A program made the translations under genes and the position numbers. Below the pieces are notes generated by a model. That model was given only the letters and a program-made list of their open reading frames with translations. It was not told the DNA's origin and searched no databases. Positions 1,496-25,378 of a DNA stretch of 64,000 nt are shown here, in pieces (within the stretch, counting starts at the first letter, position 1; each line of letters begins with the position of its first letter). The stretch lies in assembly GCF_056746865.1 (NCBI RefSeq), contig NZ_CM163382.1; one strand, given 5' to 3'.

Positions 1496-2416
1496 ATGGG
1501 ATTGTTTACGACCCGCCAGTTACTCGGTTATACCGAACAAAAAGTGAAATTCCGTGCGCTGTTTCTGGAGCTGTTTTTCCGCCGTACGGTGAATTTCCAC
1601 ACCGAAGAGGTGATGCTGGACAAAATTACCGGAAAAACGCCGGTGGCGGCCTATGTCTCCCCAATCGTTGAAGGAAAAGTGCTTCGCCATCGCGGTGGTG
1701 AAACCCGCGTGTTACGTCCGGGCTACGTCAAGCCCAAACACGAATTTAGCACGCCGGAGGGGGAGCGGTATATCCCTTGTGTGAATATTTCCGCGGAGCC
1801 GGAGGCGTATTTTCGTATCGCACCGGAAGACTGGCTGCGGGCAGAGATGCAGGGGGAGATTGTGGCACTGGTCCACAGTCATCCCGGTGGGCTGCCCTGG
1901 CTGAGCGAGGCTGACCGGCGGCTGCAGATAAAAAGCGCACTGCCCTGGTGGCTGGTCTGCCGGGGTGACATTCACAAATTCCGCTGTGTGCCACATCTGA
2001 CGGGACGGCGCTTTGAGCACGGGGTGACGGACTGTTACACGCTGTTCCGGGATGCTTATCATCTGGCGGGGACTGAAATGCCGGATTTTCATCGCGAGGA
2101 TGACTGGTGGCGCAACGGCCAGAACCTGTACCTGGACAACCTGGCGGAAAACGGCTTTTGCCGGGTGTCTCCGTCCTCTGCACAGGCAGGCGATGTGCTG
2201 CTGTGCTGCTTTGGATCATCGGTGCCGAATCATGCCGCCGTTTACTGTGGTGACGGCGAGCTGCTGCACCATATTCCTGAACAACTGAGTAAACGGGAGA
2301 GGTATTCCGAAAAATGGCAACGACGAACGCATTCAGTCTGGCGTCACCGCCACTGGCACGCATCCGCCTTTACGGGGATTTACAACGATTTGGCCGCCGC
2401 CTCAGCCTGTATGTGA
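1496..2416 (+). CDS. Chimeric ORF: first ~84 aa of major capsid protein (lambda E-like) fused in frame to tail assembly protein K (JAMM/MPN plus NlpC/P60)
   Basis: N-terminus FTTRQLLGYTEQKVKF...YVSPIVEGKV...PGYVKPKHEF matches the lambda gpE N-terminus. Downstream are the JAMM motif (E...HSHPGG...SEAD) and NlpC/P60 Cys/His (DCYTLF...NHAAVY) typical of gpK. The 3' end overlaps the I gene as in lambda. Confidence 0.75.
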   Translation: MGLFTTRQLLGYTEQKVKFRALFLELFFRRTVNFHTEEVMLDKITGKTPVAAYVSPIVEGKVLRHRGGETRVLRPGYVKPKHEFSTPEGERYIPCVNISAEPEAYFRIAPEDWLRAEMQGEIVALVHSHPGGLPWLSEADRRLQIKSALPWWLVCRGDIHKFRCVPHLTGRRFEHGVTDCYTLFRDAYHLAGTEMPDFHREDDWWRNGQNLYLDNLAENGFCRVSPSSAQAGDVLLCCFGSSVPNHAAVYCGDGELLHHIPEQLSKRERYSEKWQRRTHSVWRHRHWHASAFTGIYNDLAAASACM

Positions 2417-7658: not shown

Positions 7659-7668
7659 TGGAGTGGAT

Positions 7669-10600
7669 ATGGCAGCAGTAAAAATCTCAGGTGTGCTGAA
7701 AGATGGCACAGGAAAACCAGTACAGAACTGCACCATTGTGCTGAAGGCCAGACGAACCAGCAGCACGGTGGTGGTGAACACGGTGGCCTCTGAAAATCCG
7801 GATGAAGCCGGACGTTACAGCATGGATGTTGAGCATGGCCAGTACAGCGTCACCCTGCTGGTTGAAGGTTTTCCGCCTTCACATGCCGGGACCATTACCG
7901 TCTATGAAGGTTCCAGACCAGGTACGCTGAATGATTTTCTCGGTGCCATGACGGAGGATGATGTCCGACCGGAGGCACTGCGCCGCTTTGAGCAGATGGT
8001 GGAAGAGGTGTCACGTAACGCCTCCGCGGTTGCACAGAATACGGCAGCCGCGAAAAAATCAGCCAGCGATACCAGTGCATCAGCCAGCGAGGCGGCAACT
8101 CATGCAACCGATGCTGCAGCCTCAGCACGTGCCGCCAGCACGTCAGCCGGACAGGCCGCGTCGTCGGCTCAGTCAGCGTCTTCCAGCGCAGGAACGGCAT
8201 CGACAAAGGCCCGTGAAGCAGCAAAAAGTGCTGCTGCTGCAGAGTCATCAAAAAGCGCGGCAGCTACCAGCGCCAGTGCCGCGAAAACGTCAGAAACGAA
8301 TGCCGCAGCATCACAAAAATCGGCAGCCACTTCTGCATCCACAGCGACCACGAAGGCGTCAGAAGCTGCCACCTCGGCACGGGGTGCGGCGGCCTCAAAA
8401 GAGGCAGCGAAATCTTCAGAAACGAATGCATCATCAAGTGCCAGTAGTGCAGCTTCCTCGGCAACGGCGGCAGGAAATTCCGCGAAGGCGGCAAAAACGT
8501 CCGAGACGAACGCTAAGTCTTCTGAAACAGCAGCGGGACAGAGCGCCTCAGCTGCGGCAGGTTCAAAAACAGCGGCTGTATTATCTGCCAGTGCCGCGTC
8601 AACAAGTGCCGGGCAGGCCTCAGCCAGTGCCACCGCCGCCGGAAAATCGGCAGAAAGCGCCGCATCATCCGCTTCAACAGCCACAACGAAGGCTGGCAAA
8701 GCCACTGAGCAAGCCACTGCAGCAGCGAGGTCTGCTTCTGCAGCAAAAACCTCTGAAACAAATGCAAAGACTTCAGCAGACAATGCTGCTTCCTCTAAGG
8801 CGGCAGCCGCATCGTCAGCCAGTTCAGCGGCGTCATCGGCATCATCTGCGTCTGCTTCAAAAGATGAGGCGACCAGACAAGCGTCAGCAGCGAAAGGTAG
8901 TGCCACGACAGCAACAACGAAAGCATCAGAGGCGGCAGGCAGTGCGACGGCTGCATCTCAGAGCAAAGTTGCTGCTGAATCCGCGGCAACGCGCGCCGAG
9001 ACAGCAGCAAAACGGGCAGAGGATATTGCATCCGCCGTGGCGCTGGAGGATGCGAGCACGACGAAAAAGGGGATAGTACAGCTCAGCAGTGCAACAAACA
9101 GCACCAGTGAAAAGCTGGCGGCAACGCCAAAGGCAGTTAAAACTGTTAAAGATAGTTCAGTTCAAAAAACTGGCGACACAATGGGAGGGCAGTTAAAAAT
9201 CAGCACGATAAATGCTCTTCGAATATTCAACCAAGCCTTTGGCCTTATTTTTAGGCGTTCCGAAGATCATCTTCATCTTATTCCGACTAATGAAGGGGAG
9301 GGGGAAAATGGAGACATCGGTTCATTAAGACCATTCTCTATAAACTTAAGATCAGGGTTGGTGTCCATCGGTAATGGACTAAAAGTTGGTGGTAGTGTTA
9401 CTGGTAATTTGACCGGAAACGCAGATACTGCGACCAAGATCAAGACAGCACGTAAGATTGGGGGCGTGGCATTTGATGGATCGGCAGATATCAACTTGCC
9501 TGGAGTCAACGCTACCGGTAATCAAAACACTACAGGTAATGCTGCGACCGCCACGAAACTTCAGGCAGCCAGAACGATTAACGGTGTGTCATTTGATGGT
9601 AGTGCAAATATCACATTGACCCCTTCAAATATTGGGGCATTGGCATTAACTGGAGGGACTCTTTCAGGTGGTTTAACTGCTGCTGGTGAGGTTATTTCAA
9701 GGTCAGCAAATGGTCTGCGTATTGCCTATGGCAACTATGGATTCTTTATCCGAAATGATGGATCAAACACATATTTTATGTTGACAGATTCGGGTAACAG
9801 TCTTGGTACGCACAATAGCTTAAGGCCGTTTATAATTAGTAACCATACTGGCAATGTTACAATTGCAACTAAATTAAACGCGAGTGGTGGTATCACTGGA
9901 TCTTTATCGGGTAATGCAAGCACAGCAACCAAATTGCAAACTGCAAGGACAATTAACGGCGTAAAATTTGACGGCTCGGCAAATATTGAAGCGTTTCCGC
10001 CAGGTGTTCCGCTGCCGTGGCCATCAGATACACCACCTGCAGGTTATGCAATCATGCAGGGGCAGACGTTTGATAAGGCAGCATATCCGAAACTGGCTAT
10101 TGCCTATCCTTCAGGTGTTATTCCAGATATGCGCGGCTGGACAATCAAGGGCAAACCCGCCAGTGGCCGGGCCGTATTGTCTCAGGAACAGGACGGCATT
10201 AAATCGCACACCCACAGCGCCAGCGCATCCAGTACGGATTTGGGGACGAAAACCACATCGTCGTTTGATTACGGCACTAAATCCACGAATAACACCGGGG
10301 CGCATACGCACAGTCTGAGTGGCTCTACGGGGTCTGCCGGTGTTCATACTCATGGTAATGGTATTCGTTGGCCAGGAGGCGGCGGTTCTGCGTTAGCATT
10401 TTATGATGGCGGTGGGTTCACTTATGTCCAGAATTCACAGTATCAAGTAAGCCCGGAGACTTCTTCCTATAGATCGTATTATCAACGTATTCAGACACAG
10501 TCAGCAGGTGCTCATACCCACTCGCTGTCTGGTACTGCAGCAAGTTCTGGCGCACATGCACATACTGTAGGTATTGGTGCGCATACGCACTCCGTTGCGA

Positions 10601-10698
10601 TTGGTTCACATGGACACACCATCACCGTTAACGCTGCGGGTAACGCGGAAAACACCGTCAAAAACATCGCATTTAACTATATTGTGAGGCTTGCATAA
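7669..10698 (+). CDS. stf: Side tail fiber protein Stf
   Basis: N-terminus [21 protein letters not shown]... like lambda Stf, long Ala/Ser-rich TSETNA repeat region, C-terminal GAHTHS repeats. ATG at 7669 has a GGAG SD 5 nt upstream (the track's GTG at 7663 is less likely). Confidence 0.85.
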
Positions 10699-11282
10699 TG
10701 GCATTCAGAATGAGTGAACAACCACGGACCATAAAAATTTATAATCTGTTGTCCGGAACTAATGAATTTATTGGTGAAGGTGATGCATATATTCCGCCTC
10801 ATACAGGTCTGCCAGCAAACAGTACCGATATTGCACCGCCAGATATTCCGGCTGGCTTCGTGGCTGTTTTCAATAGTGATGAGTCATCGTGGCATCTCGT
10901 TGAAGACCATCGGGGTAAAACGGTTTATGACGTAGCGTCAGGGGACGAGTTATTTATTTCTGAACTCGGTCCGTTACCGGAAAATGTTACCTGGTTATCG
11001 CCGGAAGGGGAGTTTCAGAAGTGGAACGGCACAGCCTGGGTGAAGGATACGGAAGCAGAAAAACTGTTCCGGATCCGGGAGGCGGAAGAAACAAAAAACA
11101 ACCTGATGCAGGTAGCCAGTGAGCATATTGCGCCGCTTCAGGATGCTGCAGATCTGGAAATTGCAACGGAGGAAGAAACCTCATTGCTGGAAGCCTGGAA
11201 AAAGTATCGGGTGTTGCTGAACCGTGTTGATACATCAACTGCACCTGATATTGAGTGGCCTACGAACCCTGTCAGGGAGTAA
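10698..11282 (+). CDS. tfa: Tail fiber assembly protein Tfa
   Basis: 194 aa, start overlaps the stf stop (TAATG), Tfa-like sequence. Confidence 0.8.
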
Positions 11283-11336
11283 TCATTGGGATTATGCCGC
11301 AGCACGTCTTAAGCAAGAACGTGCTGCGGTTGGATG

Positions 11337-12005
11337 CTATTTTTTCCCTGAAGCGGAAAACATTACTACAGTACCTTGAACCTTGGTTTTAACATTCTCG
11401 AAATGCTCTGAGAGTATATGTGTTAAGCCTTCTTCGGAATCTTTTGTGTTTGAAAAGATGCCTTTCTGATTGTAAATGCGCATCAGTTTTTGACCGAAGC
11501 TATTGTGCACAACTCCATCGCCAAGAATTGTGGCTCCGTATAGAGTTCCATCGTCAGTTAAGGCCTGCGCCGCATTGCGTATTACACAGCTTTTTGTAGA
11601 TATATTTCCAGGCAGGCAGTGAAGAAGGTAAAACATGGAAATGGAATCAAATTGACCATGTAACGCCGCGGGATAAGGTTCAAAAACATCATGGCTAATT
11701 TTATGTTTAATTTTTGATTCCCCAGCCCTTGTAGATGCCGCGTTCAGGCTAGCTTCGTTCAAATCCATTAAAGATATCAGACTACTCTCAGGTACGTGAG
11801 TAAGGTAAAACCCAGTTCCAACACCAATATCCAGATGGTTGTTACCTAAATGTTCCAGAAAGTGTGGAAGAAGGTGTTCCTTTGTAGGACATCCCCATGC
11901 AAGCCGATTTGATACTCCCAAAACCCACCAGTCATAAAGCTTTAGGGTAAGTGGTGTGTAAATTTTAGCCCCATCATCTGTGTTTTTTTTCATTGATTTC
12001 ACCAT
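11337..12005 (-). CDS. Class I SAM-dependent methyltransferase (prophage cargo gene, substrate unknown)
   Basis: Rossmann motif I LDIGVGTGF, about 220 aa, AT-richer than neighbours, opposite strand between tfa and a tfa fragment. More likely start is ATG at 11993 (GGTGA SD). Confidence 0.6.
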   Translation of the reverse strand: MVKSMKKNTDDGAKIYTPLTLKLYDWWVLGVSNRLAWGCPTKEHLLPHFLEHLGNNHLDIGVGTGFYLTHVPESSLISLMDLNEASLNAASTRAGESKIKHKISHDVFEPYPAALHGQFDSISMFYLLHCLPGNISTKSCVIRNAAQALTDDGTLYGATILGDGVVHNSFGQKLMRIYNQKGIFSNTKDSEEGLTHILSEHFENVKTKVQGTVVMFSASGKK

Positions 12006-12024
12006 GTTATAGTTTTATTTGTAA

Positions 12025-12053
12025 ATTAAATCAATTATGGCGATGAATTACAA
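12025..12053 (-). promoter_or_regulatory. Predicted sigma70 promoter of the methyltransferase gene
   Basis: Minus-strand TTGTAA-17 bp-TTTAAT just upstream of the ATG. Confidence 0.3.
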
Positions 12054-12061
12054 GGGGTTAA

Positions 12062-12328
12062 ATGCTGCCGCAGCATAGCGATATTGAAATAGCCTGGTAT
12101 GCTTCGATACAGCAGGAGCCGAATGGCTGGAAGACCGTCACCACACAGTTCTACATCCAGGAATTCAGTGAGTATATTGCGCCACTGCAGGATGCTGTAG
12201 ATCTGGAAATCGCAACGGAGGAAGAAAGATCGTTGCTGGAGGCATGGAATAAATATCGGGTGTTGTTGAATCGTGTTGATACATCAACTGCACCTGATAT
12301 TGAGTGGCCGACTTCACCTGCAGAGTAA
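12062..12328 (+). pseudogene. Tail fiber assembly protein fragment (duplicated tfa 3' end with unrelated N-terminus)
   Basis: 88 aa. The C-terminal ~50 aa ([18 protein letters not shown]...DIEWPT) nearly repeats the C-terminus of the full tfa at 10698-11282. Confidence 0.55.
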
Positions 12329-12560
12329 TCAACGGCGCAGGGATGATATTTTGTGCTTGAAGTGCCTCCCCGACCATTCAGATAGTCGGGGAGGGGGGAT
12401 TGGGATTATACGCAATCAGTTTTAGTTAAAGACCGAAGTTCTCGAAAAATCTTTCTCCAAAACCAGAATGCAATTGATTGATTTTGATAGGATCTATAAT
12501 GCCGTTACCTTAAACGGCAAAACCACTCAAAAACAAACCTAATGCATTGAATATAAAGGA
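12329..12560. other. Prophage-chromosome junction region (candidate att site) with a 10-bp-stem hairpin at 12365-12394
   Basis: Non-coding segment between the tfa fragment and the potB stop. The ATG immediately after the potB stop is followed by only a 9-codon ORF, not a potC-length reading frame. Confidence 0.4.
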
Positions 12561-13424
12561 TTAATCATCTAATTCGCTCACCTTCTTATTCAGCAAACGA
12601 GAAGCGCGCCAGTAAACCAGCAACATCAGGCCCATTACGATAGTCAGCGTAATGCTGGTGGCTGCACCAAACGGCCAGTCACGAATATTGAGGAACTGTA
12701 CTTTGATGACGTTACCGATCAGCAGGTTTTTCGCACCGCCCATCAGGTCGGACACATAGAACAGGCCCATCGCTGGCAGCATCACCAACAGGCATCCGGC
12801 AATAATCCCCGGCATCGTCAGTGGGATAATGATACGGATAAAGGTCTGCAACTTGCTGGCACCGAGATCGCGCGCCGCCTCCAGCAACGGCTTATCCAGT
12901 TTTTCGATACTCGAGTACAGCGGCATCACCATAAACGGCAGCAGAATGTAAACCAGACCGATAATCACCGCACTGGGTGTGAACATGATGCGAATTGGTG
13001 TATCGATAACGCCCAGCCAGAGCAAAAACTCGTTGAGATAGCCTTTGGTGCTGAGGAAAATTTTCAGCCCGTAGATACGAATCAATGAGTTGGTCCAGAA
13101 CGGAACAATCAGCAGAAACAGCAGCAGCGGACGCACCTTGTGTGGCAGCTTCGCCAGAAACCAGGCAAAAGGATAGCCCAGCACCAGGCAGGCGAGGGTG
13201 GCGATCAGCGCCATATTCAGCGAGTGCAATAGCACTTCAAAATAGAGCGGATCGAGCAGACGCGTGTAGTTATCCAGCGTAAAGACCATTTTGACGAAAC
13301 TGGCGTCGTCGCGGGTCAAAAAGCTGGTGCCAATGATCATCAGGTTGGGCAGAAAGACAAACAACACAAGCCAACCGACAATAGTGACAATCACTACATT
13401 CTGGAACTTACTTGTGTTCTTCAT
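12561..13424 (-). CDS. potB: Spermidine/putrescine ABC transporter permease PotB
   Basis: Protein matches PotB and overlaps the potA 3' end. An internal start near 13388 would give the shorter annotated form. Confidence 0.9.
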
Positions 13425-14544
13425 CAGCCAGTACGACCTCCCAGCTTTCTACCCAATTAATGGCCATTTTTTGGTCGAGAGAGTGGTCAAAGTCAGGATC
13501 GTCTTCATTGAAGAATTCGCTGACCATCACCATCTTGCCATTTTCCAGTTCAACAACCGACTCCAGCGTCATGCCTTTGTAGTTACGCTCGCGAACGTAA
13601 CCAATCAGCCCTTCAGCGTGGTTGTCGTCGTTAATCTCTTCAACACGTAAGTCTTCCGGGCGCAGCAGAACATGCAGTTTTTGCCCCGGTTCAACGGCGA
13701 AGTTAACGTAGATATTACATTCGCGGCCTTCAACGTTGGCGCGTACGCGCTGCTCGTCGAGACGTTCGATGACAGTGGCGTTAAACATATTGATTTCGCC
13801 AATAAACCCAGCAACAAACAGGTTTTTCGGCTCTTCATAGATTTCACGCGGCGTGCCGTCTTGCTCAATGCGACCATCGCGCATCACCACAATCCTGTCC
13901 GACATGGTGAGTGCTTCTTCCTGGTCGTGAGTCACGAAGACGAATGTAATGCCAAGCTTACGCTGTAACGCTTTCAGCTCGTTCTGCATTTGCTTGCGCA
14001 GTTTGTAATCCAGCGCTGAGAGCGACTCATCCAGCAACAACAGACGAGGCTTGTTAACCACCGCGCGGGCAATGGCGACGCGTTGCTGTTGACCACCAGA
14101 GAGCTGATGCGGTTTGCGTTGAGCGAAGGTTTCCAGCTGCACCATCCGCAGGGCTTCCATCACGCGGGGCGTAATTTCAGCAGCGGGGGTTTTTTGCATG
14201 CGTAACCCAAAGGCCACATTTTCGAACACGGTCATGTGGGGGAAAAGTGCGTAGCTTTGGAAAACAGTGTTCACATAGCGGTTTTCCGCCGGAACGTGGG
14301 TGATGTCCTCGTTATCCAGCATGATGCGTCCGGAATCAACAGTTTCCAGACCTGCAATCAGGCGAAGAACGGTTGTTTTACCGCAGCCAGAAGGGCCAAG
14401 CAGCGTGAGGAACTCGCCATTGTTGATAGTCAGATCCAGCTGGGGAATGACCTCTTTACCATCAAAGCATTTGCGAATTCCCGCCAATTGCACCAGCGGT
14501 GAAAGCGAACTCGGTTGTTTATTCAATTTTTTACTCTGTCCCAT
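13408..14544 (-). CDS. potA: Spermidine/putrescine ABC transporter ATPase PotA
   Basis: 378 aa with Walker [10 protein letters not shown] and signature [13 protein letters not shown]. Confidence 0.95.
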
Positions 14545-24072: not shown

Positions 24073-25323
24073 ATGGAAAGTAAAGTAGTTGTTCCGGCAC
24101 AAGGCAAGAAGATCACCCTGCAAAACGGCAAACTCAACGTTCCTGAAAATCCGATTATCCCTTACATTGAAGGTGATGGAATCGGTGTAGATGTAACCCC
24201 AGCCATGCTGAAAGTGGTCGACGCTGCAGTCGAGAAAGCCTATAAAGGCGAGCGTAAAATCTCCTGGATGGAAATTTACACCGGTGAAAAATCCACACAG
24301 GTTTACGGTCAGGATGTCTGGCTGCCTGCTGAAACCCTTGATCTGATTCGTGAATATCGCGTTGCCATTAAAGGCCCTCTGACCACTCCGGTTGGTGGCG
24401 GTATTCGTTCTCTGAACGTTGCCCTGCGCCAGGAACTGGATCTCTACATCTGCCTGCGTCCGGTACGTTACTATCAGGGCACCCCAAGCCCGGTTAAACA
24501 CCCTGAACTGACCGATATGGTTATCTTCCGTGAAAACTCGGAAGACATTTATGCGGGTATCGAATGGAAAGCAGACTCTGCCGACGCTGAGAAAGTGATT
24601 AAATTCCTGCGTGAAGAGATGGGCGTGAAGAAAATTCGCTTCCCGGAACATTGCGGCATCGGTATTAAGCCGTGTTCTGAAGAAGGTACCAAACGTCTGG
24701 TTCGTGCAGCGATCGAATACGCAATTGCTAACGATCGTGACTCTGTGACCCTGGTGCACAAAGGCAACATCATGAAGTTCACCGAAGGCGCGTTTAAAGA
24801 CTGGGGCTACCAGCTGGCGCGTGAAGAGTTTGGCGGTGAACTGATCGACGGCGGCCCGTGGCTGAAAGTTAAAAACCCGAATACCGGCAAAGAGATCGTC
24901 ATTAAAGATGTGATTGCTGATGCATTCCTGCAACAGATCCTGCTGCGTCCGGCTGAATATGATGTTATCGCCTGTATGAACCTGAACGGTGACTACATTT
25001 CTGACGCTCTGGCTGCACAGGTCGGCGGTATCGGTATCGCCCCAGGCGCAAACATCGGTGACGAATGCGCCCTGTTTGAAGCCACCCACGGTACTGCGCC
25101 GAAATATGCCGGTCAGGACAAAGTAAACCCAGGCTCTATTATTCTCTCCGCTGAGATGATGTTACGCCATATGGGCTGGACTGAAGCCGCAGACCTGATT
25201 GTTAAAGGTATGGAAGGCGCAATCAACGCCAAGACCGTAACCTATGACTTCGAACGTCTGATGGAAGGCGCTAAATTGCTGAAATGTAGCGAGTTTGGTG
25301 ATGCGATCATCAAGAACATGTAA
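24073..25323 (+). CDS. icd: Isocitrate dehydrogenase (NADP)
   Basis: 416 aa, full-length Icd. Confidence 0.97.
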
Positions 25324-25346
25324 TCTCTACATGTGTTAAATATTGA

Positions 25347-25378
25347 AACGGGCGTATAACACGCCCGTTGTTTTATTT
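25347..25378 (+). terminator. icd rho-independent terminator
   Basis: AACGGGCGT-ATAAC-ACGCCCGTT followed by GTTTTATTT. Confidence 0.7.

Follow-up and report, generated by a model that had tools for sequence, protein, structure and literature searches.

The 234 bp of non-coding DNA between the potB stop codon and a tfa remnant, found in a 64,000-nucleotide stretch of contig NZ_CM163382.1 (RefSeq assembly GCF_056746865.1; hereafter the window), very probably represent attR, at which the tail side of a lambdoid prophage, Rac-like and of the PhiCFT073-potB type, joins a core sequence at the end of potB. A short core was identical in the empty site and at the two ends of the prophage, where it is flanked by bacterial sequence on one side and phage sequence on the other. 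In relatives, an arm-binding tyrosine integrase and an excisionase are encoded at the opposite prophage end. By sequence evidence, repeated arm-type sites occur in both arms together with an IHF site, and the empty site is present in other strains of the species. Both the junction sequence and the gene order are those of CFT073, which places the prophage in the PhiCFT073-potB type.

Attachment core and integration site

The core, TGAATAAGAAGGTG (14 bp; 12579-12592, minus strand), was defined by a three-way alignment of the K-12 attB, the attR of the window and the attL of Escherichia coli CFSAN061770. It is common to all three and overlaps the potC Shine-Dalgarno region in part. As the prophage extends beyond the window, attL was read from CFSAN061770, which matches the window junction at 100% identity across 2.2 kb. 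The window contains one copy of the core, and a second adjoins int in CFSAN061770 (L002, 32756-32769). The flanking sequence is bacterial on the left of the core at the window junction and on its right at the int junction.

In K-12, the core occupies the potB codons ...L-N-K-K-V and ends 8 nt 5′ of the potC ATG, which itself overlaps the potB TGA as ATGA. The initial annotation had found the junction to fit integration into the 5′ end of potC. Because the core lies wholly in potB codons, upstream of the potC ATG, the integration target is the 3′ end of potB and not the 5′ end of potC, and "potC insertion", as used in typing papers, is at the nucleotide level a misnomer. Alignment against an uninterrupted locus had been proposed at the same time as a check, and the K-12 empty site indeed defined both the 14-bp core and the exact C-terminus of PotB. 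No tRNA gene that could have served as an alternative att target was found in the window.

The core was also read in two O157:H7 strains. The attL core of TB21-1 is TGAATAAAAAGGTG (L009, approximately 2001-2014), and the attR core of Show KS 470-1 is TGAATAAGAAGGCA (L005, approximately 2609-2622). Strand exchange would be confined to AAGG (window 12581-12584), unless later mutations or differences between the strains explain the discrepancy between TGAATAAAAAGGTG and TGAATAAGAAGGCA.

Chimeric 3′ end of potB

Both potA (13408-14544, minus strand; 378 codons) and potB (12561-13424, minus strand; 287 codons) are intact open reading frames, as initially annotated. The potA DNA is 99.0% identical to K-12 potA over its full length, and its counterpart is annotated as PotA in the genomes matching the window; the potB DNA is 97.3% identical to that of K-12. 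At the protein level, PotB of the window differs from K-12 PotB at the C-terminus alone, where the K-12 ending ...LLNKKVELE-stop is replaced by ...KKVSELDD-stop. The divergence from attB begins directly after the core, with the phage-supplied codons AGC GAA TTA GAT GAT TAA (SELDD-stop; 12561-12578, minus strand). The 3′ end of potB is thus chimeric, bacterial up to the core and phage-derived beyond it, in agreement with the earlier suggestion that the last few potB codons came from the phage.

A second attP class, represented by O157:H7 and RM10466, gives the PotB endings ATEIDD-stop and ATEIDN-stop, which are equal in length to SELDD-stop. PotB WP_000799406.1 is the annotated product in CFSAN061770 and EC31, both of which carry the exact junction of the window. 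In these two genomes the SELDD-tailed protein, with its phage-encoded end, is annotated as an ordinary PotB.

The int-proximal junction in other lysogens

The initial annotation had found potC missing from its expected place, and the absence of both potC and potD extends throughout the 64-kb window: blastn and tblastn searches with the K-12 genes matched the paralogous stretch of potB alone. The two genes were located at the far end of the prophage in other lysogens. In CFSAN061770, the prophage is approximately 52 kb long and its far end has the order RecE-like exonuclease, xis, int, 166 bp, potC and potD, all oriented as the pot operon. The lysogens examined were CFSAN061770 (exact junction), CFT073 (same junction class) and O157:H7 TB21-1 (same integrase module). 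In all three, potC is full length, retains its native ATG and Shine-Dalgarno sequence, lies 166 bp downstream of int and is followed by potD. The encoded PotC is the identical protein WP_000580316.1 in CFSAN061770, CFT073 and the O157:H7 lysogen. In the two lysogens with both ends located, potB and potC are 44-52 kb apart.

These data contradict the proposal that the phage would have to supply a replacement start for potC. The accompanying claim that the prophage disrupts potABCD holds in so far as the operon is split into potAB and potCD, but not for the coding sequences of potC and potD, which are intact in the lysogens examined. The worry over expression is thus a fair one as far as transcription is concerned.

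The integrase, analysed in its CFSAN061770 copy, contains the lambda Arm-DNA-binding domain (PF09003, 3.7e-21) and the domain PF00589 (1.9e-18). An Exc-family excisionase (PF07825, 7e-5) is encoded upstream of int in the same genome. The xis and int genes are also present in CFT073, EC31 and O157, and their location is outside the window. The window strain presumably has the same attL as these relatives. No contiguous attP was found in a free-phage record, and two "phage" records that were examined, or inferred, as matches to the int arm proved to be excerpts of prophages. In record ON470612.1 (vB_EcoS-640R1; L010) of the phage collection, potC and potD of the host lie beside int; the record is a prophage excerpt with host flank, not a packaged genome.

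Tail-side arm of the attachment site

The 234 bp between potB and the tfa remnant consist of a P-type phage arm, a hairpin block specific to the lineage, and the 3′ flank of the tfa remnant. The att arm proper appears to extend roughly from 12430 to 12578, because conservation between the two attP classes fades at about 170 nt from the core. In the second class (O157:H7 Show KS 470-1 and RM10466), the tail-side arm is approximately 70% identical to that of the window.

Arm-type sites were expected because the integrase is of the lambda type with an arm-binding N-terminal domain. A candidate site, the 13-mer GTTTTGGAGAAAG, is located at 12451-12463 (minus strand), approximately 116 bp from the core. 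It is the only exact occurrence in the window, where two places match with at most 2 mismatches, the other (50603) having 2. Near int, GTTTTGGAGAAAG recurs as three tandem copies of the same orientation, at 45-81 bp from the core (L002 32675, 32688 and 32699). A match to the IHF consensus, AATCAATCAATTG = WATCAANNNNTTR (12471-12483, minus strand), is 8 bases from the candidate arm-type site and is one of just 8 such matches on both strands of the whole 64-kb window. The sequence TTTTGGAGAA is invariant in the divergent arms of O157 and RM10466, and the IHF consensus is found at the same position in both (2718-2730 in L005 and in L006). This conservation in otherwise divergent arms is the best evidence that the IHF match and TTTTGGAGAA are functional, and suggests that Int and IHF bind these motifs.

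The arm also contains the 9-codon reading frame MINPLYSMH-stop (12568 to 12539, minus strand), known from its translation. The initial annotation described its ATG as following the potB stop. The reading frame exists, but it starts within the last potB codons (GATGATTAA; ATG at 12566-12568). It is poorly conserved in the O157 and RM10466 arms. Its ATGAT resembles the ATGAT formed by the potB stop and potC start at attB, and nothing else is held in common with potC; the interpretation as a truncated potC was rejected. Most likely, the reading frame is phage arm sequence and not a gene.

The hairpin at 12365-12394

The 10-bp-stem hairpin reported initially at 12365-12394 was confirmed by inverted-repeat and folding analyses, with a perfect stem formed by CCTCCCCGAC and GTCGGGGAGG. 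Folding of the minus-strand RNA gave -24.2 kcal mol-1 (z = -5.1), a value reached by none of 200 shuffled sequences; the plus-strand hairpin had z = -2.3. Two functions were considered for it and rejected. As a Rho-independent terminator, the hairpin has the stem but no T tract beside it on either strand, and a scan of 11200-12700 returned no terminator-like site. As a regulator of int, it lies approximately 182 nt past the core on the int-sense strand, a geometry that fits a retroregulator of the lambda sib/tI type; the hairpin is, however, absent from O157 lysogens with near-identical int and int arm, and occurs elsewhere in phage cdtI. Searches against Rfam gave no match within the flagged interval, the only hits being sub-threshold CssrB and IS009 over the tfa coding sequence.

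The distribution of the hairpin follows the prophage lineage. It was found once per genome in 931 genomes, CFT073 included, which are essentially the carriers of this lineage. In CFT073, a 107-bp hairpin block, 98.1% identical and in single copy, is flanked by the methyltransferase gene, the tfa remnant, potB and potA. The homologous attR arms in O157:H7 and RM10466 lack the hairpin, and in phage cdtI the block (window 12300-12438) is situated beside cdtA, far from any potB att. Because it is absent from the former arms and present in cdtI away from the potB site, the hairpin is not part of the conserved att module. We read it as a lineage-specific mosaic joint at the cargo boundary.

Prophage genes adjoining potB

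The earlier observation that a prophage end abuts potB was corroborated by the genes beside the potB stop. The nearest is a 3′ remnant of tfa (12062-12328, plus strand), which matches the Pfam family Caudo_TAP at profile positions 75-131 of 131 only, shows approximately 90% identity with the 3′ end of the complete tfa and is annotated as a pseudogene in relatives. It is followed by a cargo gene for a class I SAM-dependent methyltransferase (11337-12005, minus strand), recognised from its Pfam methyltransferase domains and annotated in CFSAN061770, EC31 and CFT073. A promoter-like site of this gene is located at 12061 to 12034. Next come a full-length tfa (10698-11282, plus strand; Caudo_TAP over the full length, and annotation), which is the last late gene of the prophage, and the side tail fibre gene (7663-10698, plus strand), a 1011-codon reading frame annotated "prophage tail fiber N-terminal domain-containing protein". 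The genes lom and J are found further left. In the second attP class, the first gene past potB is espK, encoding a type III secretion effector, in O157:H7 (L005 3004-4365) and a YkgJ-family gene in RM10466 (L006 2806-3135). Like the methyltransferase gene, each is co-oriented with potAB.

Several further features of this region were recorded. The position of the methyltransferase gene between the full tfa and the tfa remnant suggests that cargo was inserted and the tfa end duplicated, and CFT073 has the same arrangement. The methyltransferase gene and tfa have in common a bidirectional hairpin plus T-run at approximately 11290-11336. The Rfam family IS009 (RF02111) scored 225 bits on the 3′ coding part of tfa (11041-11239, plus strand), exceeding the gathering score, and 113 bits on the tfa remnant (12085-12288, plus strand), just under the threshold of 117; the IS009 "gene" thus coincides here with tail-fibre-assembly coding sequence. 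The tail fibre protein contains about 400 residues of low-complexity repeats rich in Ala, Ser and Thr (residues ~120-470), which create spurious open reading frames in other frames (7958-9076, plus strand; 8169-8906, minus strand).

Internal deletion of the prophage

Compared with the CFSAN061770 and EC31 prophage, that of the window has a clean deletion of 7,835 bp (window 1496-2416, with the junction at approximately 1748). The deletion spans most of the major capsid gene through the minor tail gene L, and the genes lost include FI, the head-tail joining genes, tail tube, G/T, tape measure and M. With a microhomology of 1 nt, capsid codon ~84 is fused in frame to gpK (C40 peptidase), creating a 306-aa reading frame. 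The prophage of the window strain is defective for particle formation. The capsid-gpK junction was found in no complete E. coli genome of the collection; the window strain is therefore not identical to any reference.

Integration and expression of the divided operon

In the mechanism that we favour, a lambda-type tyrosine integrase inserted the prophage at the 14-bp core in the last potB codons. Recombination left potB bacterial up to codon V of ...NKKV, and the phage provided SELDD-stop in place of ELE-stop. At attL, outside the window, the core would be followed by the untouched potC start and by potC and potD in full. The coding sequences would thus survive and the operon would be cut in two: potAB would keep their own promoter, and potCD, at a distance of 44-52 kb, would directly follow xis-int and share its orientation.

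Under this arrangement, potCD would probably be transcribed by read-through from the int side. A scan of the attL stretch of CFSAN061770 (L002 31200-32900) called no sigma-70-like promoter, no site reaching 9 of 12 matches, and returned no terminator-like call between int and potC. A TTGACA at the int stop was considered as a potCD promoter and rejected, since inspection by eye showed no usable -10 element. In an RNA-seq study of CFT073, potD mRNA was measurable and differentially regulated (PMC8716947); this shows that the gene is expressed in the lysogen, and not where its mRNA originates.

A further proposal is a reciprocal swap of promoters, in which the cargo is placed behind the pot promoter and potCD join the xis-int unit, possibly with a coupling reading frame. 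We consider it unlikely. No intrinsic terminator was predicted between potAB and the methyltransferase gene; from this and the co-orientation with potAB, it follows that the cargo could be read from the pot promoter. The co-orientation is not itself evidence of selection for read-through, as a lambda-like b region has it anyway. Read in the frame of potB, the phage arm stays open over as many as 39 codons and ends ...SRLMNKKVELE-stop, on the TGA that overlaps the potC ATG. Speculatively, this short phage reading frame could preserve translational coupling to potC. If the swap were real, the cargo could be read from a polyamine-regulated promoter, and the stoichiometry of PotABCD, and hence spermidine uptake, would depend on the state of the prophage. 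Apart from the swap, the two halves of the operon are 40-50 kb apart in about one third of E. coli strains, a separation that may affect whether a balanced PotABCD spermidine importer is made.

Alternative explanations

Three other explanations of the junction were weighed against attR at the potB end. Integration into the 5′ end of potC, with truncation of that gene or a requirement for a phage-supplied start, would account for the lack of potC in the window and for an ATG with a short reading frame at the junction. The core, however, stops short of the potC ATG, all of the sequence unlike attB on the window side codes for the end of PotB, three lysogens have a full-length potC that keeps its native start, and the short reading frame has only ATGAT in common with potC. 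Taken together, these findings leave that explanation scarcely credible. An error of assembly, joining the tail end of the prophage to potB, had been named initially as a finding that would overturn the annotation. It is contradicted by the identical junction in 816 complete genomes from unrelated sources, and the structure, with its common core and the empty site in other strains, is exactly that produced by site-specific recombination. The probability of a misjoin is negligible.

The third explanation accepts the junction as real and holds that the window strain has lost or rearranged the left part of the prophage together with potCD, for example by recombination between prophages, so that the operon is truly broken. 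The prophage already has its unique 7.8-kb deletion, the window stops short of the left prophage end, and, in O157:H7, "prophage 5 (potC)" has been described as containing breakpoints of large inversions and of a 47-kb deletion (PMC10925052). Against these points, the 1.7 kb on one side of the deletion and the 23.6 kb on the other are collinear with CFSAN061770, at 100% and 99.97% identity, and int-potC-potD is kept in the lysogens examined. We regard such a loss as very unlikely, and retain attR at the potB end as the explanation of the interval.

Prevalence and relation to known prophages

The attachment junction has been described before and is an ordinary, heavily used prophage site of E. 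coli. The 2.2 kb around it are 100% identical in E. coli CFSAN061770 and EC31, and the junction is common to 816-914 complete E. coli genomes. Occupancy was estimated with a 401-bp probe that spans the boundary of potB and potC in K-12. The empty site was present in 3,800 of the 5,425 complete E. coli genomes, and the approximately 1,625 others were split at probe positions 178-189, which correspond to the core; about 30% of the complete genomes are thus split at potB/potC. PhiCFT073-potB is a 44-kb prophage of CFT073 (PMC3573123) and has been described as Rac-like and "inserted into the potB gene" (PMC4632033). A PP_potB prophage is known in O157:H7 clade 8 (PMC9997748), potC is listed among the insertion sites of Stx phages (PMC8065619), and a "Prophage 5 (potC)" has been named (PMC10925052). 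As a discovery, the junction therefore matters little; what is added here is its nucleotide-level annotation, comprising the 14-bp core, the phage-encoded tail of PotB and the intact potC.

The insertion site of the window is that of PhiCFT073-potB and of PP_potB/"prophage 5 (potC)" of O157:H7 and other STEC. In CFT073 the attR block is the same, with methyltransferase, tfa remnant, hairpin, arm and chimeric 287-aa PotB, and its attL (xis, int, 166 bp, potC) is like that of CFSAN061770. In both CFSAN061770 and CFT073, the early region is Rac-like, with a RecE-type exonuclease, dicB and ydfABC, as stated in PMC4632033. The window differs from CFT073 in the tail fibre region, and from the PhiCFT073-potB and O157 types by the 7.8-kb in-frame capsid-gpK deletion, which was found in no complete genome. 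The O157 and RM10466 versions have a nearly identical int arm, whereas their tail-side arm has diverged, with the PotB tails ATEIDD and ATEIDN and with espK and the YkgJ-family gene as cargo.

The organisation of the site resembles that of lambda. Both have a tyrosine integrase with an N-terminal arm-binding domain; the three tandem arm-type sites of the int-side arm recall lambda P'1-P'3, and the candidate arm-type site on the tail/b-region side, ~116 bp from the core and beside the IHF consensus, recalls the lambda P arm. Unlike lambda, the prophage has different core and arm-site sequences, and its attB lies inside the 3′ end of a gene rather than in the gal-bio intergenic region. Replacement of a gene end by a prophage also occurs with e14 in icd and with Rac in ttcA, where a near-copy of the gene end supplied by the phage keeps the gene open with a slightly altered C-terminus. 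For Rac and TtcA, this has been reported (PMC4632033). Unlike in e14/icd and Rac/ttcA, the target here precedes a translationally coupled gene (the ATGA overlap), and integration also severs the operon after its second gene.

Window positions from approximately 24073 to 25376 and beyond contain icd and then ordinary chromosome (iraM, ycgX, bluR and others). In CFSAN061770, otherwise near-identical, the end of icd is occupied by a second prophage, which is lambda-like (int, xis, exo, bet, gam, kil, cIII).
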